A stretch of DNA of 57,527 nucleotides, the filler included, from Streblomastix strix (Eukaryota), in NCBI GenBank assembly GCA_008636045.1. It is 3 parts of 3 records of this genome, joined end to end, with 100 filler letters (N's around TTAATTAATTAA, not from the genome) between each part and the next. Parts side by side here need not be neighbours in the genome. Positions count along the whole stretch, not along the records: positions 1 to 19,115 come from SNRW01000544.1; 2 more parts are not named here. The stretch is one strand, 5' to 3'. The translations under genes were made by a program, and so were the position numbers. The notes beneath the pieces are model-generated. The model worked only from the letters and a program-made list of their open reading frames with translations. It was not told the DNA's origin and searched no databases. Positions within the stretch are counted from its first letter, which is position 1; each line of letters starts with the position of its first letter. Positions 245-57,527 of the stretch are shown one piece after another.

Positions 245-3200
245 ATGTCTGGAACTCTAAATTTATTTTCACCATCAAACGCTTAAAATACATTTACTAA
301 AGATAGCATTATTCTGGTACCTGTTGTTGCAAGTGAGACATTTTTTATTCGTAGTATGGGCTTAACTTCAATGAATGTAATTCCTGGATTAGAATGCAAT
401 GAAATTGAGGTATTGATTTTTAAATTGTTGCAATTTTATAAAAATTGAAAAAAATTTTGAGTAGGGTTCCTTATAAACAACACAATCTACTCATGCAAGC
501 AAAACTTTCACAAAAAAGATTGTAGGGTTTAAAAAAGGAATGGAGCCAAAGATTATATTTGCATAGTAGAACAAATTTACTTCTTTTGAAGGAATGCCTT
601 AACTTGTAAACTTAGAACAGATATTTCTTGATAATAATTAGATAATAAATTTTGTTGGAATTCCATATTTAAAGAATCTTCATATTCTAACACTTGAGAA
701 TAATAATATCACTTCATTCTGTGGTGCTGAATTATTGCCAAATTTAGAACAACTTAATTTAAAGGGAAATCCAATTACTGAATATATCCCTGAAGATGCG
801 CATGAATAATCAGATAAAGCTTATAGGGTAATGGCATTTATTGCATTTGGATCAAATAAACTAAAAAGAATTGACAATGAAATATTATCATTGTGTGAAA
901 GAGATGATGGAGAAAGAATAATGCAATATGTCTAAGATAATATTCGTTAAGGATATTTATTACGTCATATATATAATGAACCACTTAACTCACTTGAAAG
1001 AGCTAAAGGGTAATATATTGCATATGAAGAAGATCTTTAAAAAGAATAAGAATTATAAGAAGATTAAAATGATAATTTAATTTAAGTTTCCCACACTCCT
1101 CCTTCATGGGAATAGAACAATTAATTTAGTAAAATTCCTTCTGATGATGTTAGACTCTCAGATGAATAAACAGAATAAGAGAATAAATAATACAATTAAA
1201 CATAAAACTAATAATTAACTCCTAAACATTAAAGTCCAATTCATCAATCTAAATAATTGGATAAGAAATAAAAGTTATTCTCCACTCCAAACACTCAATA
1301 AACATCTCGAAGTGGTAATAATTAAATTAATAATTCTAATAAATCTTAAAGTAGAAATAAAATTGATCCTTAATTTGGTATTATTTTATTATTATTATTA
1401 TTTTTTTATTGAAATACTATTTAATTTTTACTGTATTATATTATTACAGAAGTGTCTGGATATGTAGATTTATTATGGAAGAAAGATTCAATTAAAGAAT
1501 TGAAAGTAATGAAGGTAATTAAATTAATATTTTTATTAATATTTACTTAATTTTGATTTATCTTTCTTTTAATGATTTTATTCATTTTTAATTTTATGCT
1601 TTATTTAATAATATTTAATCTTAATTTTAAATTACTTTAATGTATTTAAATCAAATATACTTAAATAGAAACATCCATATCACATCAGAGGGAAGATGGA
1701 TCGCATTTCTCCATTTGTTGTTCCAGGTAAATGGACTGAATAATCTCTATTAAAAGAATAGAAAGAGAGATAAATTAAATAGAAGTGTAAATAATAGAAA
1801 GAAAGATTGAGTGGATGGGAAGGTAATGAAGAAATAATATAAGATGAAAATATAACAAAGTAAGATGATCCCAATAATACAATAGTATAAATTAAGGATG
1901 ATGATTAATTGGAGAATGAAGAAATATAAAGAAATAAAGAAAGAAATGAATTTAATGATGATTATGAATAAACTTAACATATTTATGTTGCTGAAGAAGA
2001 TTTACATGACACAGATATATTATTCCTTAAGAAGATGAGAGATGTTATGGATGGTATTATTTTATAATATATAAAGTTTATATTTATATTCATATTTCCT
2101 TCTTTATTATATATATATATATTTATATTTATACTTCAGCTACAAAATAATTATTAACGATTGAAGATGATATTTTTAAATAGGAGTAAGATAATGAATA
2201 GAATAAGAGTACAGAAATAAAAGAAATTAAACATCTTCGTGGACTTTAAGGGAAGCTTTGTGCTCATCCAGCTGTATTTGATGCACTTGGAATTAATTTA
2301 ATTCGTCTTACTGATGAAAGTTCAAACATTTACAGTAGTATAAAAAAAGCATCAAAACACGGAATTAACTAAAATATGAATTTTATTGTTTCAATGAAGA
2401 GTATAATAGAATATTTATCAACATCATAAATAGATTGGGCTTTGAATATTGCTGATTATGAAGATAAAGGAGATGAAGATTTGAGGCAACGAGCATAATT
2501 TCTCTCTTCAATTGACCGCAGAGGAGTATTTCCAAAGAAAATTAATTGTCTCTTTCTTGAAGAATATATTGGTTAAATTCCTGAAGAAGAAGAATAATAA
2601 TAAGAAGAATAAATACAAAAAGAAGAATAAGAACATGAATCAGAATAAGATAATTAAGAGCATGAATAGATATAAGATAATTAAGAGCACGAATAAGAGT
2701 AAGATAATTAAGAGCATGAATAGATATAAGATAATTAAGAGCACGAATAAGAGTAAGATAATTAAGAGAATGAATAGATATAAGATAATTAAGAGCACGA
2801 ATAAGAATAAGAGAATGAATCAATCAATGAATAATAATTAAATTAAGAAGATTAAATAATATAAGAGAATGACAATTAAAAAGTACAATAAGAATAGTAA
2901 TAAGAACATGAATAAGAAGATTAATAATAAACAGAACAAAATGATGAATCAATTAGTGAATAAGATTAAATTCAGATAAAAGATAGAAAAGAAGACACAA
3001 ATGAGAAAGATGATGACAAAGATGAAGAAAAACATAAGAATATTAATTAAGAAGAAAGATTAAATGATCAATTGGATAAAATAGAAGACAATTAAGAAAT
3101 AAAATATTAAAAGGTTTTAAAATAAGATAATGTACTTGAAGATGGAAATGAAGTAATAATATAAGAAGATATATTGAAGTAAGAAGAAGAAGGGATAAAT

Positions 3201-4757
3201 GAAATACCAATTCTATGCACTGGGATGCAATCATAAAGATTCAGAAAAGGTAAAATAGAAGTTAATCACCGTGGAATATTCTTCTCAGCTGAAGTTAATA
3301 CATATTAATAAAATGAAAATGACGAAGTTGAAGATTAAGACAATTATTTATAAAATGATTCAAAATCTGAAATAATATTTTAAAGTTCATTTTTGCTTTT
3401 GAGTGGAATAGAACTGTTGAATGATGGAGAACTATTTGATGGATAAGATTTTGTTATATCTAATTAATAGAATGGAGAATTAAATGATAATGGTGAAGAA
3501 TAAAATACTTAAGAAGGAAGTATTCATATTTCATTAGATTTAATATTTGAAGACGAAGAGAGAATAGAAAAAGAAATAATTGCAATTGAAACAAAAAAGA
3601 CTTTGTATAAATATAGAAAGAAGAGAAAAGAATAAGTTTCTGATTAAGAAATTGAGCTAAAAGGAAGTCCAAACATCACTTAGAAACATTCAAGAAGTAA
3701 GAAATATAATAAAATAAAGAAAAGAAGAAAGAAATCTTAATCATAATCAAGAGATCATTAATTAGATGTCAATAAAAGATCCAATTCACAACCAAATTCA
3801 CCTCCTCAGAAGACATTGAAATAATCTAAGAATTCATCTGCCAAATTAAAGACTGACTAATTCTCAAAATCTGAAATAAAACATAAATCTTCCCAATAAA
3901 AGAATAAATCAACATCAATTTCTCCTTCAAAGCTAAAAATTAATAAATAAAAAACATTACCATCAAAAGATGAATTAATTTAAAATGAAAAAGAGATTGG
4001 TAAATAGATAAATTCATAGAAAATTGACATAATTAATAAACATAAATCATAATAACACAAAACTAAACAATTTTCCACAAATAAAGAAAAATTTATTTCA
4101 GATATTAAAACTAAATAAGAAAAAGGAATTTAAGAATATATACCTAATAGTAAGAACAATATTGTTGCATTAAACTCATAGCAAACTAATAAACTCAATA
4201 ATTCAATAGATAATTAACAATAAAATGATATTATTGCAGATAAACATGAAATTGAACACGATCTTGAATCAAAATAAAGCCGTCATACAATGAATACAAC
4301 TACTTCATCAATATTTACTTCAGAAAGTTCATCTCATAAATCTCATAAATAGGCAATATTTGATTAAATGTTTATTTCACCAGTATAAGAAAAAGATATA
4401 TAATAGGAATTAAGTGATTAAAATGATAAAGGTAAATAAGTTAATTTTGATTAATAAGAGAAAAGAAATGAAAATAATAGTTAAAATTCAGATTAATAAG
4501 ACAGTAGTGATAATATTGAAGATCTTGTAGGAACACTGCGCTTAGAATTTCTTACAGGTATAATTATTCGCTTCCGGTGCATATAACCCCTGCACGTTTA
4601 TGGGATCATTAAGCTATGGTTTGAGAGAACTCAAAGTAAAAGAATGGCATTTCTTGAACATGTACAGAAGTTCTTCACAGAATAAGTGAATAATAAAGCT
4701 CAATAACATGGCCATGTTCTCCTGTTTCATGATTTACGATAGAAAAACTCACTTTGA
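245..4757 (+). CDS. Leucine-rich-repeat protein (N-terminal SDS22/AIR9-like LRRs, long Q/E/N-rich tail); multi-exon
   Basis: With TAR=Gln: ATG 245, GT-AG intron 410-464, LRR units NLEQIFLDNNQI / NLHILTLENNNI / NLEQLNLKGNPI and LRR-cap YRVMALIAFG..LKRIDN; more AT-rich introns near 1.38-1.45, 1.51-1.67 and 2.05-2.14 kb; ends ...QKNSL-TGA 4755-4757. Confidence 0.75.
2631..2819 (+). repeat. Coding tandem repeat, 7 x 27 bp (EHEQIQDNQ / EHEQEQDNQ alternating)
   Basis: Alternating units GAGCATGAATAGATATAAGATAATTAA and GAGCACGAATAAGAGTAAGATAATTAA, a 54-bp higher-order period. Confidence 0.9.
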
Positions 4758-12831: not shown

Positions 12832-14553
12832 ATGAATCGCTAGCTTATGAAGACACATGTGCCTAAAATACAAACCAATTTGGAAACAATCGAGAATTTG
12901 TTAAAGACTTTCACAATTCAACCATTTTAGAACGATGGATAACACCATTTCTCAATCAAAGAGATCAAACCAGAATCATAAATGCCATCATTATTTGATA
13001 AGGAAGTTATTATCAGTTTGACCGATCCAGATCATGACGTAACATAGATTTAAAATTCATTAATTACACTTGATTTTACGTTGAATCTATTGTTCGATAA
13101 TAAATTTGATTAATTTAGCGAATCTTATAGAGCTGGAACATTTATATTTGTTGGATTAAAATCATCTGCATAACTAATTCGCGAATATGTTCTGTATCAT
13201 CGAGGAAGAATAATTGATGGATCCCTCTAGAACGATTCAACTACCGAATAATTTATCTATAATACTATTAAACCCAAATCAGAGAAAAATAATAATAGAT
13301 TCGTTCATTCACTCTATGAAAATGTACGTAAAGATGATATATCGCATTGTGGAAAATATCTTAATATCAAGGATATTTCAGATGCATTTGCTCCACAAAC
13401 TGCTGCTCCATATGTTATGCCAGTAAATTTCTCTGTCTCAATTCCACTAGATGATTTACTCATTTTCTCAGCAATCTCTGAATATCCTAACGCATTATTT
13501 GGAGATCTCAAAATTAAATTCAAAATCAATCAAAACGCTTTCGTATTCTGCCAAATTGATCCAGTAATTTCGATGGCTAGATATTACACAATTAATAACG
13601 ATGAATTATTGAGCTCATGTTAAGATAAGCTTAAGGATATTGATCTATTCTTCCGCAACTGGAGTCTCACATTCTAATATACTAACATGTTCATATAAAT
13701 TGGATGCACTGCTGATTTGGTTACAGGAGTACGTGCTGAAGAGCTAACTCCATCATGATTAAAGAATCTAGTTTGTGATATTAGACCAGTAACAGAATCT
13801 GTAAGAAATTATGTCATTACTGCAGCTGTTGCAAATATGTGTGGATATAAAGCTTCACAAAAATGTCTTAATCATGTGCGATAATTCTATTCAACTCGTC
13901 CATTTGTTGTATCTGCATAACGTATTGAAACATAGGCATTTCCAAGTGGTGCTACTCTCACTGGATTGCGTACTTCATAAAATATACCGCTATCTCATGT
14001 TACTGATATGTGCTTACTATTTCCTAAAGATGCTAGACAAACAACTTGCTTCGAAAATCCATGGTATTAAAATATGTAATTATCCACTTTAGGTAGAAAT
14101 TTCCCAGATTTCCCCATGAATACACTTAATGAATAATTTTTCACAATGTAGATGACTGAAAATAATCTCGATAATATATTCGAAGCTATTGATGAATATG
14201 AAGATTCATTAACAACTCCAAGAGGAAATTTGATTAGAAGATACAATTCTGTAACTGATTATACGTCATTCTTTATTATATTATAATGTGAACGTAATAG
14301 CAATCGTGTATTAACATTTGATGGATTAGATACTTAAAATTAAAATACTTCAATTGAATTACATGGATATCTAATTTACTAAGGTGCAGTTGATACTTAT
14401 TATTATGTTGATACTAATGGAAAACTTCCACCTCCTCCAATTCTGCGCACAGTTCATGATTCATTCCGGCTATTTAGCCCTGCAGATGGAGTATCATGCG
14501 TCTATGATACAAATCATTCATTCGATGAGGTTATTGGATAAGTAACTGCTTGA
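12832..14553 (+). pseudogene. Putative major capsid protein (double jelly-roll, PLV type) with one in-frame TGA
   Basis: 573-codon intronless frame MNRQLMKTH...FIFVGLKSSAQLIREY...IPLDDLLIFSAISEYPNALFGDLKIKFKIN...TCFENP...LQCERNS...FDGLDT...QVTA-TGA, one TGA at 13756-13758. Size, beta-rich content and linkage to a packaging ATPase support MCP; the fold is inferred. Confidence 0.7.
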
Positions 14554-14585: not shown

Positions 14586-14976
14586 ATGGCATATAATCGT
14601 GCAGTAATTAATGATATGACTTCAGCTCAGAATGTAAAGCGCTTCGTAATAATGTAGGATGATTGTACGTATGTTGATGGAATGTTTAAAGTGTAGTTGC
14701 CTTATGATTTTGTAAACTCATATAATTGGCGAAAAAAAAATCGTATAGTGTAAGATTCTTAATACTCCTGATATAGTTTCTATTCATTCAACATTAGTAT
14801 AAGAAGAATAATATTATGATAGTTTTGTAGATTTCTGTAATGAAACAAAAACGATTAATTAATTTTAATATATGAATCATTAGTCAAATATATTGATTTG
14901 GTTCAAAAATAATATGAATTAAAATGTATCATAAACGGATATAAAATTTGCTCTTGAATTAATGCTTCAATATTGA
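14586..14976 (+). pseudogene. Putative minor capsid (penton-like) protein, frameshifted
   Basis: MAYNRAVIND...FKVQLPYDFVNS, +1 shift in the A9 run at 14732-14740, then SIHSTLVQ...FVDFCN...ILIWFKN...FALELMLQY-TGA; immediately after the MCP. Confidence 0.5.
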
Positions 14977-15003
14977 TTTTTAATTATTTTTATGAATTAT
15001 TGA

Positions 15004-15156
15004 GTGTGGAGGAATTCCGCCATACCATCTGATATAGAGATTAGTGGTCAAATTATCGGTTCATTTTGACAGGTAAAATTTTACCCAACAACTTTTAACA
15101 TGGATATTAGTGGTCAAATTATCAGTTCGAACAGTCGGCCGAAATTCGGCTGACCC
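15004..15156. repeat. Intergenic cluster of two 23-bp direct repeats interleaved with three palindromes
   Basis: ATTAGTGGTCAAATTATCRGTTC at 15040-15062 and 15106-15128; palindromes at 15004-15025 (imperfect), 15072-15085 (GGTAAAATTTTACC) and 15134-15154 (GTCGGCCGAAATTCGGCTGAC). Confidence 0.8.
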
Positions 15157-15216
15157 TTCATAAATTATTTTTATATATTAATCAAAATGTAATTTGGATA
15201 TTTTTATTATAAGCAA

Positions 15217-15477
15217 ATGGAATCGAAATCAATTATCGAATAATGCTAAAAAATATTATAAATCTAAGATTAATGCAAATAAATCATGGTACTTGAGTAA
15301 CGGACTCATGAATTAAAATAAATACTTAAGGAAAAACTAATCTATACATTAGTAGGTTTAGCTTATAGCTTTGTTGATCCTATGGCTAATGAAAGTGATA
15401 AAGATACAAGATTAGAATTAATGGAGCAATATGATGCAGAAGTTGATGACATTATCAATGATATTAAGAGATTGTGA
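15217..15477 (+). CDS. Viral hypothetical protein (86 aa, helical)
   Basis: MESKSIIEQ...GLAYSFVDPM...DIINDIKRL-TGA; alternative in-frame ATG at 15187. Confidence 0.6.
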
Positions 15478-15559
15478 ACTATTTTGATAAATTATTTTTA
15501 TGAATTGATTAATAATCGTTCGTTTTAATTTACTAATCCAACTTTTTTGCCGATCAGAA

Positions 15560-16450
15560 ATGACATCGGAAACACCATCTACTCGTCAAATAGGCTCGAA
15601 TAACGAAAATTTTACAATTGGTTCTTACAATGGTTTCGAAATAATGATACGTGATAATGATGGCTTTGTTAATGCTTCTAAGTTAGTCCAATAGATTAAT
15701 GAAAGAGAACATACATCTAAGGAATTACGTAATATTACACGTTCACCAGTCTTTGTAGAATACAAATAATATCTAGAGAAAATTAGCCCGTTCAATTTGA
15801 ACGGACCCCTTTGTTACTTACTTCCGACTGTTTTTATGAATAATGTTAGAGGAACATACGTTCATAGGTAATTATTGAATATTATCTGTATAATATCATC
15901 AGTTAAATAATTACATCATGTCACAACTATAATGGACAAAATTAACGAAAGAGTTCATGAAGAACACAATGCTGATCCCAATACTCCTATAGGTACTCAT
16001 ATTGATAATGTTAACATTGAATTCATGATTTATCAATAAGATAAAATTGATTAATTAAGATTAGATAATAAAGGTTATAATAATAATATACATTAACTAG
16101 TACCAAGAGCTGTTCCAAATGGTAAAGAAAGAACATATATATTGATAGTTGAAAAGGTTAGCGAAGATGAATAGCTTGAAGATTAGCAGGAAATTCATAT
16201 TACAAAATGAATCAGAAGAATTAATAGAAAAGACTTACGTCCCGCAAAAATAGAACGATATCGTCGTGAATCATTACTTTTTGTTGATAATTTACCAATA
16301 GATATGATGATTAATGAAAAAATTAAAGAAACTCTATAATCAAGACAAGATGTAAAAATATGATCAACTCATTATACATTCCCAGAAGACTAATTTGATT
16401 TCATAATTGATATAATATAAGCTGTAATTAACACAGAAAGAGCACATTGA
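15560..16450 (+). pseudogene. KilA-N domain DNA-binding protein (two in-frame TGAs in the C-terminal part)
   Basis: KilA-N hallmarks YNGFEIMIRDNDGFVNASKL...VRGTYVHRQLL; then coiled coil and PRAVP; TGAs at 16208-16210 and 16361-16363; final TGA 16448-16450. Confidence 0.85.
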
Positions 16451-16923: not shown

Positions 16924-17224
16924 AACTGTGCAGGTGTGCAGGATTAGGACCCCTAAAATTGATAAAATGATAGTCGGTCGGTCGCTCGCTCGGATTTGCT
17001 TTTGAGATAAGCGACTGAAAAAAATATATATTAACTAATTCATCAATCGTATTATTTTTATCAATATTCCCTATCTCTACTTATCCTGCACAAAATGACC
17101 AAAAATAGGGGAAAATTAAGGAAGTTTTATTAATGCTGCTACTTAAATGTATTCTTTAGCGAGCGACCGACCGACTTTCATTTTGGCAAAATTAGGGGGT
17201 CCTATCCTGTACACCTGCACAGTT
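16924..17224. mobile_element. MITE-like element with ~67-bp imperfect terminal inverted repeats inside element A
   Basis: Left arm AACTGTGCAGGTGTGCAGGATTAGGACCCC...AGTCGGTCGGTCGCTCGCT (16924-16990) pairs with 17158-17224; GC-rich arms between convergent viral genes; no clear target-site duplication. Confidence 0.75.
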
Positions 17225-17296: not shown

Positions 17297-18070
17297 TCAA
17301 ATAACTCGTACCATTGTTCCATCATTATTATACTGTACCAGTAATGCTTCTTGTTTGCCTAATTGCACATATTCATTCCATAATGTTTCTTTAACTAATG
17401 GAATGCTTGATTAATAGAAGAATAAATTGAATTTTTATCTGTTGAATCCACCGAAAAAGTATATTGTATCTACATTAGATTTAATGCTAGCATCCAAACC
17501 AATTATATCTTATAAGCATAGGAAGTAAGTGATTCTGGGCTATCTATTTTTGAATAGATTCTTGTATATTGGATTGATTTTATTCTTGAAGATACTCATT
17601 GCATCATCGAACAGTACTATTGTATGTGAAAATTTGATTGCAAAGTCCTTTATTCCTATGTGAGATAATATATCTTTTTTAGATTCATCATTCATTTATT
17701 TTTCTAATTTCCTTTCAATAACCTCATCATAAGCTTGTTTTCATTCGATCAATTCATCTAATGCTTCATTCACTTCTGCATATGGAACTATCTTAGTTGG
17801 GATAGTGATTAAATCTTTCATTTTTTTATAAGTTATATCATTATTGCTATCAGTAACATATTTGAATAGTGTATAACATTTATTAGGCAATTAGCTCAAT
17901 TTGATTAGCTCTTTGAATACATTATATGACTTACCGCTTCCACGTTATCCTATGTGCAGATTGATAGAATTATATGAGAAATTTATTTCTTTATGAATCA
18001 TTGATTATACTTCATGTTTATTAGTTTTCAATTTACTAAGCAATTGATCCACATATGCTGTCAAGGACAT
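17297..18070 (-). pseudogene. A32/FtsK-HerA family genome-packaging ATPase (element A), one in-frame TGA
   Basis: Walker A GQRGSGKS, Walker B TIVLFDDA, NRQPRITYFLCLQ (Arg finger and Gln sensor), IKSNVDTIYFF; TGA at 17741-17743; 257 codons. Confidence 0.9.
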
Positions 18071-19115: not shown

Positions 19116-19215
19116 NNNNNNNNNNNNNNNNNNNNNNNNNNNNNNNNNNNNNNNNNNNNTTAATTAATTAANNNNNNNNNNNNNNNNNNNNNNNNNNNNN
19201 NNNNNNNNNNNNNNN
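19116..19215. other. Artificial gap linker (44 N + TTAATTAATTAA + 44 N)
   Basis: Exactly 100 nt with a six-frame standard-code stop cassette; identical to 38327-38426. Confidence 0.97.
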
Positions 19216-19644: not shown

Positions 19645-20676
19645 ATGAGTTTATCAGAAATAAAGCAAAAATAGTTTGATACTTATAATAGGTTAGATGA
19701 ATATAAAACGAAACCATTAACCCCTAAATCTATCTTTCTTATTAACGCAAACTATTATATTGTAGGAACTGTTGGAAGTGGTAAAACAACATTAATGAGT
19801 AAACTAATTGTACAATATAAACATATAATTAATCCTTATATACTATACTTCTCAAATTTAGGACCGGATGAAAGTATGTCGTTAAATATGAATGATAAAA
19901 ATATATCAATTAGTAATATAACTTACGATGAAGCGATGATCTTCTTACCATAGTTCGATAAGATTAAATACAAGGTTAAATAGATATATACTTATTGGAA
20001 ATTAAAGCAAATGAAAGTTAAGTATAACAGTGATTACATTAATTAACTTAAATAGAATATGTTCGATGTAAATGAATTAAAAAATGAAGAAACGTATTAA
20101 TAGTTTATAACTTGAATGAAAGAGTAATTTAAAATCTATTGTATTGAAACAATTAACGAATATAGCTAACTTACAAAAATAATGTAATTTATTATACCTT
20201 CGTTAGTTTAAAATGTTAGTTATGAGATTAGATTGAAAATAACTGATACATAAGAAATAGATGAAGATGGAGTTACTATAATTAAAACACTAAAATTTCC
20301 TATACTTTAAAATGCAAAATTATTATCTACGTTAATGATCTTTGATGATATTGGTTCTAATACAGATATATAAAGATATACTTCATAGTTATCTTGTACA
20401 ATTACTCATCTCGTAAGTGATAGTAAACATTCTAAAAATACTTTATTCTTTGTTGCATAACGTATGTAATACTTGTTTAAAACTGCTCGAATATTATGTC
20501 ATGTGATTGTCCTTGGGGTTAATTTAGGAGATAGTGATTTGAAATAGATTTATAATGAGAATAATATAAACATACCAACAGAATAAGAGTTAATTATATT
20601 ATGTAACTCATTGAATAAGTATGAATTTATTGTTATTAATAAGTGGTTATAAAGATTTGAAATTATTAAATAATGA
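19645..20676 (+). pseudogene. A32/FtsK-HerA family packaging ATPase (element B), one in-frame TGA
   Basis: NYYIVGTVGSGKTTLM (Walker A), TLMIFDDIG (Walker B), DSKHSKNTLFFVAQR, KTARILCHVIVLG; TGA at 20113-20115; 343 codons. Confidence 0.85.
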
Positions 20677-35572: not shown

Positions 35573-35881
35573 TAGCGATCAAAAAATTGATTTTAGAATA
35601 AAAAATAAAAAATGCAGAATTTGGATTATTTTTGCATAAATTTGAGTTAATTTATATCTTTAAAAAATTTATTTTAATTAATTCGATATTATAAAGTCAA
35701 ATATTAATAGATTTAACCAGTTACACGGTGCTAAAAAAGAAAGCTATTATTAGATGAATTTAGTTACCAAATTAATTAATATAAATTTATTTAAATATAA
35801 ATTAATACTCATTTATGCAAAAATAACATAAATTTTTCATTTTTTTATTTTTTTATTCTAAAATCAATTTTTTGACCGCTG
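35573..35881. mobile_element. AT-rich foldback/MITE-like element with long imperfect inverted arms
   Basis: TAGCGATCAAAAAATTGATTTTAGAATAAAAAATAAAAAATG from 35573 matches the reverse complement ending ...AAAATCAATTTTTTGACCGCTG at 35881; pairing extends ~120 bp inward. Confidence 0.65.
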
Positions 35882-38007: not shown

Positions 38008-39069
38008 TCATTTCTTTTCGTCTGGCTTTCCTTGTGTCTTTGTTTGAGTCTTTGTTTATGATTGAATTTGAGAAGGAAGTGAAGATTTGGAATCTTGATT
38101 TGATTTCTCTTTCTCTGAATGTCCTTCTTTTGATCCTTTCTTTTATGCATCACTTATTCCTAAGTTAGATGTTGATACTATAAGTTCTCTGCTATTCGGA
38201 TTCTCTTTTTCTTTTTCTTTTTCTTTCTGTTTTTCTTTTTCTTATTCTTTTTTATTCACACTATCATCTTTCTATATTCTTGCTTTCACTTATTCTTTTT
38301 ATACAATTCCATCTCTTAGTAATATTNNNNNNNNNNNNNNNNNNNNNNNNNNNNNNNNNNNNNNNNNNNNTTAATTAATTAANNNNNNNNNNNNNNNNNN
38401 NNNNNNNNNNNNNNNNNNNNNNNNNNAATAATTTGATTCCGCTCTGTGTCGCCTGAGAATTGTTAATGGAGAAGAATAGTAAAATTAATGTGAATTTTTA
38501 ATATAAAATAAATAAGTAATATAAAATACTGTTGCTGCTGCTGTTTTAAGATGGTTCAACTTCATATTCTTGAGTTTGCTCCAAAATAATATTTTCTTCA
38601 ATTTCTTGTTCAAATGGAGGAATTGCATCAATAATATGCGTAAGAACATCGCGAATCATCTGAACGCAACAATGACAAATAATAATGAGTAATAATAATT
38701 TAGATTCATACTTACACCTCTTTGCGAGAAAACTTCGTTCTTTATCGAAGCATTTTTCTTAATTCTTCTTCGTTGATCACTTCGATCATTTCATCGCAAA
38801 ATCCTTGGCGAATTGCTCTGCAGATCAGCTCAATTATTCGGCGAATGCAACGCGATTGCATAACTTCATTATCAGACCGAAGTATTAATACCATATATCT
38901 CAATTCTGATAACTGAAAGTTGAACGTTAGGAAATAAAAATAAAAATAAACGGAAAATTTTATTTTTGCGCACATCAAGCTTCTGTGTATACGACCATGT
39001 TGTTGGTGTAAAAATTTCTTCTACATCGTATTCATACAGACAATTTGTATTCTTAAAGCCTGTCCTCAT
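38008..39069 (-). CDS. Hypothetical protein, multi-exon, apparently spanning the assembly gap
   Basis: Exons MRTGFKNTNCLYEY.../LSELRYMVLILRSDN.../MIRDVLTHIIDAIPPF...; the other side of the gap gives a same-strand K/E-rich C-terminus ending GKPDEKK-TGA. Confidence 0.55.
38327..38426. other. Artificial gap linker (44 N + TTAATTAATTAA + 44 N)
   Basis: Identical to 19116-19215. Confidence 0.97.
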
Positions 39070-51290: not shown

Positions 51291-54200
51291 TCACTACCTT
51301 GTAAGGCACTCTGCAACTTCTGGAATCTCAAGGATATCTGCAGATGTAATACGACGAGATGGATCCTGGAAAACAAATAAGTTGATAACAAGAATTAATT
51401 TAAATATAATTATTTATTAATCTAATTATATTGAATACTTTAGACAGCATGTTCTTGATCAGTTTCCTCAAGTTCTCGGAGTAGTGACTAGGAAGTTCAG
51501 CAGGTTGTTCTTCGGTAATTCGGCGGATAAGTTCAAGTAGAGAGAGGTTGTTATCCTAAAATATATCATTTTAAATTAATGACAATATGAATTTATTAGA
51601 TCAATATAATCAATATAATAAAAATAAACGAATAAAAACAGATTTTCATACTTTGGCATCAAAGAATGGGTGACGCTGTGCCAACAATTCGAACATCATG
51701 ACTCCAATGGCCCAAATATCTGCTGCTGGTGTTTGCATCAATTTCTTTGCACCTTACCCTTAACTGGGTTCTACTTTGTTTTGGAGGAGCTCGGGCCCAA
51801 GGTATAAGCTGAAATAAATATAAATTTTTAATAATAAACATTAAAATTAATTAATGATTATTTAATATTTGTTATAAATAATACTTAAATTTTATTCAGA
51901 TATATATTTTTCCATTTATTATATATAGATTCATACGTTGTGCCTCCCATGGCTGTGAGATAATCTCTTCCTTCTTCGATCTTACGAGCCAACCCGAAAT
52001 CGGCTGACAAACAAATTGATAATAGAAATTAAATAAAGAAACATAAAACAAAATTAACATACAGAGTTTTACCCTGTAATCTTTCATGACCAGAACATTC
52101 TCAGGCTTTAAGTCCCCATGAATAATATTGTTTATGTGAAGTTGGTGAACAGCAGAGGTAATCTGTGCAATGAGCTCAAAAGCTTTCTATAATAATAAGA
52201 TTATTATTATTATTATATTATATAATTTGCAATAATAGTTTATTAAAGAAAATTCAATATAAATAAAATAATAATAATAATATTTATATGATTTATTTTA
52301 TTATAAATATTTTTTAGCAAACTCTATCGGTAATAGCAGCTCCCATGCTCCTCATATTGTTAATATATTTCCTCAGATCACCTTTCTCGCAGAACTCAAG
52401 CACAAGATAAGCTTTTGTAGAATCTTCGCTCAAAAAGAACCCAAGAGGTTGAACCACATGAATGAATGATCCAGGAGGACTTGATTTTTTAATAGACTCG
52501 TAGATGTTCAACATTATGTCTCTTTCCTTGAGTATCATCTATTATGCTTGTTCATTATCATAATCAACTACTTTTATGGCAACAACTCTTTGTGTGCTTC
52601 TTTCCATCATGCACCAAACTGTTCCAAATCCTCCTCTACCAAGTTTCTTGACCTTCTCGACTAAATAATAAGATATAAAAAAGAAAAATAATATTAACAA
52701 ATGATTAAAATAATAATAATAGTTAAAAATTAAAAGGAAATGTAAACAATTTATACAATAATTTATATATTATCCAATAATAATATATATTCTCCATACA
52801 ATCAGTTTTATCCCAGGTTGTGTTGAATGGCGCATTTTCATTTTCCATTTGAACATGATCTTTTTTTTTATCTTTCTATTTCTTGCGTCTACAGATGCAG
52901 CAGATGATGATAAGTACTACTATTATAATAAGGAGAACACCAACTGCAGCAATTAGAATTATCATCCACTTTGGGAATGAAAATCCTTTTGGAGAATCAA
53001 CACCATCTATTTCTTCTTATTTTTGTTCTTCATCTGTTTCTTCATCTGTTTTTTCATCAACTTCTAATTCAATGACATTAAGAGGAGGTGATGCACCTTC
53101 TTTTCCTTCAACACCAGTAAATATCGATCCATCATTCGAGATTAGGAAATTATAGTTATATTTATTGTAGTCAAACCACTTATAAATTTTCATTCCAAAT
53201 GTTGCTGTTTGTTCATCTTGAAGATTTCCTTCAACTTGGATTGGAGTCCCTGATCCATCTTCTGGAGGATATATTACATCATCTGCATTGTATTATTATA
53301 TTGATAATTCCTTATTGACTGATGTTTTTAATCCTGCTTATATAATCTTCACTCTCAAATTAACTCCTGCTATTATACCGCTGCCTTTAATTGTGAATTG
53401 AAGAGGTAAGTTGGTATTTGAAATATTCAAGGTAACTTCTACTCTGGTTAAAGTTGCTATTTTAACCCAGAAGTATTAGAGATGATATTATTATTCTTGT
53501 ATTTCTTCTTATGAAAGTCCTTAGAATGCATTTGATTCCATTATTACACCTTCAAGATCATTTAAATTTGCTAAAGTATCACTATAATTACCTTTCACAT
53601 ATTCTCCCAGTGACCCTTAACTGCACCATTCTGCTAATTTAGTCATTACAACATATAAGCTTTATCCACCTCTACCTGCAGTATTTCCAGTAATATTCAT
53701 CCATCTAAAGTCCAGAGCCTTTTATGAAGGTTCATAACTTCCTGTTCCAGTCAAGAAGATTCCTCCTCCATATCCAGTTGGAGAAGCTGGTGATATGTTA
53801 TTGACTGCTTGGCAGTTTTGGATTACAGAGTCCCTGATAATGAATGTGGTTGAAGAATCTGCACTAAACGTCATATCAGCATAAATTCCTCCTCCATTTC
53901 CTGAAGTTGCTTTGCATTACTTTAATGAACATGTATTTTAGAGGATAAGTTTGCCACCTCCTGTTATTCTCGAATACAATCCTCCTCCTCTTAAACCTTC
54001 GCATTATAAGAATTAAGTTCGAGACAATGTCATTTATGCATCTGTATTCTATATTTCTGCATTAATTGCTCCTCCCCAAGTATTTTGAGCTTTACATGAA
54101 GTAAATGTACAATTTGTAACATTAAATATATTCGATGCGTATGATAATACTGCCTTGATTATTCCACCTGCAATTGTATCTCCTAATTTTGTAATATTCT

Positions 54201-56845
54201 CAAATTAGCTGTTAATAATTCTAATTGATCCAGTTTCATTGAAATTAACTTTGATGATATTCTCTTCAGTAGAAATATCTTTTGCTTTCAAATTGGATAT
54301 TATATGAGAACCTCCTCTTATTACTGAAACAAGACTTCTGGCAATTTATGATCCTAAATTCTACAAGTGGAATTCACAGTCTTATAGATCAATTTCTGCA
54401 GTTGATTATAGACCATATATACCCAGATTAGTATATAGTAGGATGGTGCTCTCCATAGTAAAGTTTATTAATTGGAATCTTACTTTTCCACTTATATTGA
54501 ATTTTCCATCTGTATTAATTAGGATTCTACTTAATTGAATACTTGAAAGTGGATTGTTTCTGAATGTACGTCGAGTAGCTGTCTGCGATATTACTGCTGT
54601 ACTATTTATGGAGGTGTTGTCATATATATAAATCTAAGTTACTGTTTCACTGTTAATATTAGTCTATATCACAGATGCATCTAATGTCTTACAAGGATTT
54701 GTTGAGTTACACGAATTTGAATCATCGCTACCATCTGATTTGATAAAATATTCATTTCTTTCTTCATTCCAATAATCTTTAAGGTACTTCTATAGCAAAC
54801 TTATATTTGATGTTGAATATGAACTGAATGTTGATGAATTCACTGGTATTCCTTCTAAATCACTTACATCAGAATAAGTATCACTGTAATTCCCTTTCAC
54901 ATATTCTCCTTCTCCTCCATATTTGCACAAATCAGCAACTTTTGTCATTGCAGCAAATACGCTATATCCTCCATTATCAGCTCTGTTTCTGTATATATTC
55001 ATTCCACGAAGGTCAATCAGTTCAGATGATGGATCATAATCTCCATTACCTGCAAGAAACAAGCAACCGCCATATCCAGAAGGTGGTATATCTTAATTTT
55101 CATCAGATTTTGCTTGGCATTCTTGAATTAAGGTATTATTGATCTTGAATTAAAATTATGATGTAAAGTTATTGATATTGATAAATAATCCTCCTCCGTT
55201 TCCTGATGTAGCTTAGCAATCAGAAAACAAACATTAATCTTCAATTATTAACTTCCCTCCTGTACTTATAGTTGTATAAATACCTCCTCCACTTATTCCT
55301 CTACAATTATCAACAGTTACTCCACTTAATTCAACTGATCCTCCCGAGATTACAATATTAATAGCTCCACCACTTCCTGATGTTGCATTGCAATCTGAAA
55401 ATGAAGTTGAGCTATTGATGGTTAACTTCCCTCCTGTACTTATAGTTGAATAAATACCTCCTCCATTCACTGCAGAACAGTTATTAAATGTAACATTACT
55501 CAATTCTATAGATTTATTAGAAACATTATAAAAATATAATCCTCCTCCCGAATTCAAAGCACTGCAATTTAAGAATTATGAACTTGTTATATTAATTTCA
55601 CCAGAATTTTAAGTTGATATATATAATCCTCCACCATTACTACTTTAACAATATTTGAATGTTGCATTATTAATTTCAAGAGTTCCAAGATATTGAATAT
55701 ATATATACATTCCACCACCATCTGTAGCTTTGCATTAATCAAATTCTAATTCTCCAGTAAAATTTATTTAAGATCCTGAATCCCAACTAGATAAATATAA
55801 TCCTCCTCCATATCCTGAACTTGTACTTGTGCTTGAGCAATTGTAAAAAGTGTAATTACCTGTAATTGTCAGATTTTACACAGTTTATATTTAAAAATAG
55901 ACTCCTCCTCCTCCTAAACCAAAGCAACTGCATTCATTGAATGATAATTTATTCATCTAAAACTATCCAATGTAACTTAAAGATATAGCTAATCCACCTC
56001 CTTAGTAACCTTTACATCCCTCAAATAAGAGTTCTCCAGTGATATTGATATTATAGTTTGGGTTTAATGCGTTTATGTAACACCCTCCTCCAGAGCTGCT
56101 TGAGCCTGAACAAGAACAGTTCTTAAATGTGCATACTCCAGATATTGTAAGATACCCATTTTCATATATCAATGCAAATAATCCACTTCCACCGCCACCT
56201 CCTGCTCCAATTGAATTGCAGTCAGTGAATTTACTTTAGTTAATTAGCAATGCTCCATTTGATTAAGCACTACCATACATTCCTCCTCCATCATTAGATC
56301 TACAATTAATAAACTAAACTTAATCAAGAGTTGCTTATCCATAGTTGTTGCAAGTTATATACAAGGCTCCTCCATTGGTTGAAGAATTACATCCAATAAA
56401 ATTGCACCCTGAGATATTAAGTTTACATGAAGTACCAAGAAAAGCATTAATTATACCACCCTAAGAGTTTGATACTCTAGCTTCCATTGTGAAATTAATC
56501 AATTCAAAGTGAGCATTTCCACCAATATTGAATTACCCACCTTTATTAATTTGGATCTAACTATTAGTTGTGCGATCCATAGGATTGTTTGTGAATGTTC
56601 TCGGAGATGATGTATATGTAATTGAGAAATTAGAAGACAAAGTTGTTTAATCCAAGATATAGACTATATATGTACTTGCAGTGTTTATGCTATTTTTTAT
56701 AGATTGTGCATCTAATGTTAAGCATTAACCTTATTATGAGCATTAATTTGAATCAGTTCCAGAAGTTTCAACGTAAAATTCTTCCCCAGAAGTATTAAAG
56801 AATCCAAAGGAAATGAAGAACGTAAGGAATAATAACAGATAACAT
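51291..56845 (-). CDS. Single-pass receptor-like Ser/Thr kinase with a Gly/Cys-rich beta-helix (pectin-lyase/Pmp-like) ectodomain
   Basis: Many F..C...GGG(I/L)Y repeats; TM WMIILIAAVGVLLIIIVVLIIICCIC-RRKK; kinase LGRGGFGTVW, VAIK, HGDLKPEN, DFGLAR, GPE, DIWAIG; ends CLTRQ-TGA 51291-51293. The ATG at 56845 is one base out of frame with the signal-peptide-like stretch. Confidence 0.85.
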
Positions 56846-56976
56846 TGATTTTTCTTATTATTTATATGTTTGAGTTTATATGATAATTACAAGTTGATGG
56901 AGAGAATTTAAGTTGCTAATATAGGCAGAAAATAAATAAGGATTAGAATTATTATAATTCTATTGAATGATCTTAC

Positions 56977-57527
56977 TTGTTGTTGTAACTAGGAGAATAT
57001 GGTACTTATTAATTTGATGTATCTGTTAATAATGTTTGTTCTGGAAATAGGTGAACGATCTAATAATCTAATTTAATCTTTTCTTACTTCATCAATTATT
57101 AGTCCTTCCACTTTATAATCACCTTTATCATCTCTCATTGAACAAAGCATAATCCTGTCAATCATTAAAGTCAAGAGATCAGCGAAATACGTTGGATTAT
57201 TTGAGCTATTACATCCAAATTAGTCATTATACTGCGGTACAGTTAATCTCATTATACTCTCAAGATCAATTTTTTATTCAGATTTGAGTTCATTGAATAT
57301 ATGTTATTCTTCAATTACGAATGAATTAGCACCAAGATCTGATTGTGCGAACACTCTTGTACATTATTCGAGATAAGATCCAACAAATGTGAAGTGGATT
57401 GGACGATCGGTGGGATTCGCGCCTATGTATGAAACATCTGGAAGAGTGCATTTGATCAATTGATTCCTGAATATATATTCTGTTCCTTCCAACTTATTCT
57501 TACTGACAGACAATATATTCTCAGTGT
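56977..57527 (-). CDS. Partial hypothetical coding region running off the window end
   Basis: Open frame TENILSVSKNKLEG...HFTFVGSYLEQC...LTLMIDRIMLCSMRDDKGDYKVEGLIIDEVRKD...; 3' end or splicing unresolved. Confidence 0.45.

Follow-up and report, generated by a model that had tools for sequence, protein, structure and literature searches.

The closest precedent we know of is Roi of phage HK022, a DNA-binding protein for which a palindrome lying within its own gene has reportedly been proposed as the binding site. We know of no array of sibling sites in print for Roi. The locus described here, in the termite-gut oxymonad Streblomastix strix, likewise joins a viral DNA-binding protein to a palindrome (here a predicted site) within its own gene, and differs from Roi in that the latter belongs to a bacterial phage and to another protein family, and involves an IHF site. 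Arrays in which a constant spacer alternates with variable units copied from genes are familiar from CRISPR and from vls-type silent antigen cassettes. KilA-N domains are widespread (phages, poxviruses, giant viruses, metamonad polintons) and their viral targets are largely unknown. Relatives by fold, Mbp1 and PCG2 (1mb1, 1bm8, 4ux5; PMC4333399), bind duplex DNA sequence-specifically; as described in the available text of that report, helix B of PCG2 enters the major groove but makes few contacts, the short CGCG core is bound mainly via the wing, and neither protein carries a self-encoded site. For metamonad polintons, the available text of bioRxiv 10.1101/2024.03.23.586382 calls KilA "of unknown function" and apparently restricted to polintons of Parabasalia, and that of PMC10120064 describes endogenous viruses of S. 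strix that use TAA and TAG for glutamine. The present locus shares with these systems a multicopy KilA gene in endogenous viruses of gut metamonads and, with the S. strix elements, the reassigned codons. The strings "palindrom", "hairpin" and "Streblomastix" do not occur in the main text of the former source, nor does "KilA" in the main text of the latter, and a full-text literature search, whose coverage stops short of subscription journals and bioRxiv supplements, found no paper on a KilA-N coding palindrome or array.

We analyzed a 57,527-nucleotide stretch of S. strix DNA (the window), which is gene-dense under translation table 6 and has almost no open reading frames under table 11. Two identical linkers (19116-19215 and 38327-38426), each with a 12-base AT palindrome between two runs of 44 N, are artificial joints; DNA beyond them may not be contiguous, and the first interrupts the element region. 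The features of the gene and its surroundings are as follows.

12832 to 14553, plus strand: capsid-like gene in two ORFs (12832-13758 and 13837-14553), multicopy by homology, its capsid identity putative
15382 to 15477, plus strand: small 31-codon ORF (MANESDKD...) between the array and the KilA-N gene
15560 to 16450, plus strand: KilA-N gene (code 6), from Pfam and predicted fold, with premature TGA at 16208 and 16361
15710 to 15742, plus strand: predicted helix-B region (codons 51-61), whose residues co-segregate with palindrome type
15785 to 15808, plus strand: coding palindrome, from hairpin folding, encoding loop SPFNLNGP (residues 76-83), with perfect 8-bp arms at 15788-15804

The site lies within a decayed, multicopy virus-like element; "virus-like" serves here as a label for what the gene content suggests, with no claim to Polinton membership. 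Homologues of the ORF at 15560 are labeled S. strix in 49 of 49 cases and, in an alignment-based search, in 73 of 76, and the capsid-like gene has 175 homologues at E≤1e-10, all labeled S. strix among the 120 matches listed. The low-confidence model of the capsid-like protein (pLDDT 47) is beta-rich and has no significant fold match. Downstream of this multicopy gene, the KilA-N gene faces ATPase-like ORFs; Walker-A-like ORFs at 17741-18070 and 19645-20115 gave only a sub-threshold Terminase_3 match. The split ORF sets to which they belong (17297-18070 and 19645-20676, both minus strand) carry the Walker-A-like motifs GQRGSGKS and GTVGSGKT and may represent two packaging-type ATPases. The MANESDKD peptide also occurs in gene models P0011, P0031 and P0034, and the small ORF is missing in some copies, where contig joints lead from the array directly to 15487-15523.

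The KilA-N gene is recognizable only under genetic code 6, in which its product matches Pfam PF04383 over residues 22-129 (E 1.3e-9, 38.2 bits against a gathering score of 23.8). Its predicted fold is Mbp1/PCG2-like: the top three Foldseek matches are Mbp1, Mbp1 and PCG2, with modest scores (E 0.011-0.082, prob 0.99-1.0), and the VIA structure comparison places Mbp1 and PCG2-DNA on top with similarly modest ones (Z 7.6-7.9, rmsd 3.6-3.8, 88-89 residues aligned). A PDB sequence search with the KilA-N alignment yielded no KilA-N or APSES entry. In the structure model, helix B is the helix that follows the NATKL helix, and loop residues 76-83 form the coil that links helix C to the wing. Unlike Mbp1 and PCG2, the present protein has an extra helix and the palindromic loop before the wing.

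The original prediction had described, from the sequence, a palindrome-repeat-palindrome-repeat-palindrome cassette at 15004-15156 and a further palindrome within the KilA-N coding sequence, and we find every one of these in place. The coding palindrome ranks eighth among the window's 30-nt hairpins by folding energy, and none of 200 shuffles folds equally well; only four of the 1210 perfect hairpins in the window have at least four GC pairs, the coding site and the third palindrome of the array among them. It had also been predicted that this segment of about eight codons would be hypervariable among paralogues yet palindromic, which is borne out by paralogue alignment, back-translation, locus DNA and base pairing in five related genes. 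The loop is the most variable segment of the KilA-N domain (entropy 2.46), with types that include SPFNLNGP, GLFNLKGP, GQLNLSQP, VGQNFTQQL, AGLKTIQP, AGPKKDQP, ECGGNPP, CEPNGSD and RGGENSP; these differ yet mostly remain palindromic. The best back-translatable palindrome falls in the 10-codon loop zone in 22 of 34 full paralogue domains (related sequences of about 11 types), with the other 12 failing the test, and among distant homologues it peaks there in 16 of the 58 sequences (out of 136) that have both anchors, where about 5 are expected. Twelve loci were available as DNA, and ten of these, comprising 11 genes, were scanned (L005 and L007 being near-copies of L004): the loop hairpin ranks first within its own locus in seven genes, second in one and seventh in one, and is absent in L006 and L015. 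Apart from these two exceptions, the gene for the regulator carries a palindrome in a constant coding position, as in a self-embedded operator.

Of 60 pair cells in L010-L014, the five related genes, 56 are Watson-Crick; shuffles average 35, and 0 of 20000 reach this value. Each pair column contains up to four pair types. That symmetry is kept while the loop sequence changes argues for the palindrome as the protein's site. Mismatches on the sense strand comprise 5 G.T and 8 A.C over 13 sites, with no constant bulge, and the lack of a G.U bias in this small sample favors symmetry of the duplex over an mRNA stem. Gene models P0022, P0024, P0031, P0034, P0052 and P0074 skip the palindrome segment, through either real deletions or false intron calls.

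We found that the sequence of the site appears to track predicted DNA-reading residues in two close splits. Between SPFNLNGP (n=6) and GLFNLKGP (n=6) domains, residues outside the loop are diagnostic only at 51, 53, 55 and 57, such that 4/4 variable positions in zone 51-61 are diagnostic versus 3/40 elsewhere (Fisher p=2.6e-4, the zone having been picked after this split). The independent SAG split (4 versus 4) gave only 53, 55, 58 and 61 (4/4 versus 3/29, p=8.6e-4), and a split of ECGG versus ECEP gave 5/14 (p=0.013). P0009 and P0010 keep helix and loop though their residues 1-48 drop to 68-77% identity, and residues 1-48 of P0003 are 90-98% identical to GLF types. None of the 34 paralogue domains, sampled from annotated proteins, combines the helix of one type with the loop of another, which favors a protein-site pair that changes together. 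The Mbp1/PCG2-like fold, with helix B of PCG2 in the major groove, counts for such a helix-site pairing; the reading of the PCG2 core by the wing, with few helix-B contacts in the available account (PMC4333399), counts against it. Helices B and C vary to a similar extent across the 34 domains (entropy 1.77 and 1.68, respectively), and P0012, P0014, P0017 and P0023 share helix residues though their inner palindromes differ. Linkage or block transfer can mimic co-evolution of helix and loop, which lie 60-90 bp apart, and each split may represent one event.

Upstream of the gene, the array is built as follows.

14955 to 14993, plus strand: conserved left anchor, from contig depth, ending in AATTATTTTTAT (14982-14993)
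15002 to 15038, plus strand: slot 1, loop-region copy of the ECGG(N/I)PP KilA-N subfamily by homology, with palindrome 1 at 15007-15022
15030 to 15063, plus strand: shared spacer with repeat copy 1 (15040-15062), from contig depth and repeat search
15053 to 15096, plus strand: slot 2, 44-bp loop-region copy of the VGQNFTQQL subfamily by homology, with palindrome 2 at 15071-15086
15106 to 15128, plus strand: repeat copy 2, the spacer before slot 3, 22/23 identical to copy 1
15133 to 15156, plus strand: slot 3, with palindrome 3 at 15134-15154 (10-bp arms, one G.T), the strongest hairpin, in coding-site geometry

The two copies of the 23-bp direct repeat (15040-15062 and 15106-15128) have no third in the window at up to 3 mismatches (0.00 expected). 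The AATTATTTTTAT motif occurs in the window only at 14982, 15163 and 15490, flanking the array at both ends and preceding the start of KilA-N, and is a candidate promoter or termination motif. A search for AG-N7-AAWTT-N5-GACCC, put forward in the original prediction, returned exactly two window matches (15133 and 15785; 0.01 expected; 0 of 100 shuffles reach two), a significance that is overstated because the pattern was derived from these two sites. The shared geometry that it expresses holds, with the center 11 bases after AG at both sites; as a family motif the pattern proved too narrow, fitting some subfamilies only. Elsewhere, the repeat pattern had three matches in viral_contigs, in unrelated context and taken as chance, and none in metagenome_contigs, and the KilA-N alignment gave 56 stretches in viral_contigs, none of them confirmed.

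No 30-nt hairpin in the window is more stable than palindrome 3, for which 3 of 200 shuffles fold as well, and palindromes 1 and 2 are weak (17/200 and 71/200 shuffles, respectively). The latter two are not convincing as hairpins alone and are validated by their homology to paralogue loops, a relationship that the earlier description of the cassette had missed. These folding data bear on the idea that a folded single strand, either an attC-like site or an RNA pause or termination hairpin, inserts or swaps whole KilA-N genes and that the array is the record of such events. Such a mechanism would suit the conservation of pairing rather than sequence, the location of breaks beside the palindrome, the occurrence of different KilA-N types behind one and the same upstream DNA (loose ends at 15560) and a minus-strand terminator-like match (15807-15785). 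We nevertheless consider it quite improbable, given the weak folding of palindromes 1 and 2, the lack of G.U bias or constant bulge, the lack of a recombinase in the part of the element read, an Rfam search with no match at E≤1, and the lack of chimeras at the loop.

Read in code 6, slot 1 encodes ECGGIPPYHL, 9/10 identical to P0030, and slot 2 encodes QNFTQQLL, 8/10 against P0015, and these are the best matches of either kind in the window. In other copies of slot 1, position 15010 is a C that pairs with G15019. Compared with 357 other paralogue offsets, the cassette never exceeds 6/10, leaving the loop zone alone represented. At the DNA level, contigs from P0015-type genes lie on 15053-15096 (38/44 in X4 record 30), with coding sequence continuing on both sides. 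Slots 1 and 2 are thus 35-45-bp copies of loop regions from two other KilA-N subfamilies, the DNA-level confirmation being for slot 2, and the repeat was probably formed in part from sequence flanking the two snippets (3' of that in slot 1, 5' of that in slot 2) and then duplicated. No loop matching slot 3 was found among the paralogues; the slot contains an in-frame TGA, and its position holds another sequence in other copies. The array falls outside the coverage of the predicted S. strix proteins. It resembles CRISPR arrays and vls-type cassettes in alternating a constant spacer with gene-derived variable units, and differs from them in that its two imperfect repeats do not fold and are built from coding flanks, while the palindromes are the variable units; no cas family was detected among the 11 window ORFs scanned, and no donation to the gene was seen.

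Contigs from four sequencing runs (X1-X4; three samples, three studies, one of them possibly the source of the window) allowed the array to be followed in other copies, where, as the original prediction had anticipated, the cassette recurs. Summed contig depth in X1, which is not copy number, is about 3000 at the left anchor and 1700-3300 over the spacer, about 300-400 over slot 1 and below 100 over slot 3. At least six different palindromes adjoin the same spacer across copies from three studies, as judged from consensus loose ends of up to 30 letters on short contigs that are not phased with the neighboring gene. Among them are GLF-type and SAG-type palindromes in all four runs, a GPKFMGP type in X1 and X3, and the present gene's own SPF coding palindrome (joints 14983->15784 and 15807->15030 in X1, 15807->15030 in X4, and 14978->15784 in X3), which the array of the present copy lacks. 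In X2, a different core lies within the flanks of slot 2, and in X4 a GTKKCP type that matches the P0082 loop directly follows the left anchor. A 38-letter SAGIKTCQ variant between 15060 and 15487 was not counted, being weakly paired and similar to a capsid-gene peptide. Slots are exchanged between element copies around a constant spacer, and their palindromes correspond to the coding types SPF, GLF, SAG and GTKKCP, which speaks for the palindrome as the protein's site. Some copies join the array directly to the upstream region of KilA-N.

Movement of DNA between gene and array, as seen in the presence of the coding palindrome in slot 1 of other copies, is what would be expected if silent cassettes donated loops to KilA-N by gene conversion and so diversified the protein, and the slots are indeed oriented as the gene is and have homologous flanks. 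However, the slots carry no helix codons, so that donation would uncouple helix and loop, and none of the 34 annotated domains is uncoupled or carries a cassette segment on a mismatched background; slot 3 also has its in-frame TGA. The array is therefore not a loop donor as far as these domains are concerned, and we rate this explanation as very improbable. The suggestion in the original prediction that KilA-N binds these palindromes as operators gains indirect support from the co-segregation of helix and palindrome; its alternative, recombination that diversifies the loop, is not supported, given the lack of chimeras among the 34 domains.

The iterons of lambda lie inside gene O, and from this analogy, together with the palindromes, repeats and AT-rich flanks, one could imagine that the KilA-N gene and its surroundings hold a replication origin or packaging signal. 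Some copies, however, have a shortened array or none (joint 14949->15199), and its content varies; we regard such a function as extremely improbable.

Exchange is also seen in an unrelated element family for which full DNA was available. L004 and L005 carry an 83-84-bp piece, 95-96% identical to the L008-type loop region, just upstream of a different KilA-N gene, and in L008 (480-640) and L009 (60-150) truncated KilA-N genes have an intact palindrome about 5-11 bases from their start, one of these genes directly following a complete KilA-N gene that belongs to another type. These remnants could be neutral debris, the palindrome being a hot spot of mutation or breakage that stays symmetric through template switching in a tolerant loop, and repeated replacement of KilA-N genes at the locus leaving behind scraps whose ends lie near it by chance. 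Slippage at hairpins, though, usually deletes the hairpin, and the scraps always retain an intact palindrome. Slots that include coding flanks beyond the palindrome, truncation of L004, L008 and L009 genes beside it and decay of the present KilA-N copy all agree with debris, and template switching can create and maintain hairpins, according to the available text of 10.1101/2021.04.15.439925. Against this stand the conservation of the spacer over many copies in three studies while the cores were exchanged, the representation of the loop zone and of none of the 357 other offsets, and the helix-B changes alongside the loop, which debris leaves unexplained. We judge debris to be an unlikely explanation.

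On balance, we lean toward the view that each KilA-N protein binds the palindrome in its own coding sequence and that the array collects sibling sites for cross-regulation or titration. A KilA-N dimer would bind the palindrome in duplex DNA; as helix B changes, the site would change with it, and template switching between the arms would preserve symmetry. Older KilA-N genes at the locus would erode to the sequence surrounding their site, and slot cores would later be overwritten by conversion from coding loops, making the array a multi-specificity landing pad assembled from sibling palindromes. With many element types per nucleus, such an array could expose the element that carries it to repression by the KilA-N proteins of related elements, or allow it to sense or titrate them. 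A more tentative possibility is a regulatory code of self and non-self, with self-written sites, orthogonal helix-site pairs and an updatable upstream "address book" of relatives' sites; were this true, it would imply DNA-level cross-talk, immunity or decoy activity among hundreds of co-resident copies. A functional array would show how related elements that share a eukaryotic nucleus in large numbers regulate one another. A predicted cognate site accompanies each of about ten natural protein types, and some of these protein-site pairs are separated by only four helix residues and a few base pairs, which makes both function and recognition code testable with short oligonucleotides.

Several smaller features accompany the locus. 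C-terminal halves of KilA-N proteins are shuffled independently of domain type, with identity over residues 129-200 of 0.25-0.95 among near-identical domains. Between the converging gene blocks lies a GC-rich inverted repeat (16924-16990 and 17158-17224; 67 nt, 85%, 167 nt apart) that may represent two element ends joined together or a small inverted-repeat element, and farther along are an AT-rich inverted repeat (35600-35669 and 35783-35852; 70 nt, 77%, 113 nt apart) and, at 52564-57525 on the minus strand, a very long host ORF in which beta-helix-like units that contain GGG are repeated and a membrane segment lies at the C terminus. L010-L014 also carry, outside the KilA-N loop, a second recurrent palindrome family of the TTTAAAGC...GCTTTAAA type, several per locus, as in L011 at 1012, 1404, 1760, 3466 and 3506.
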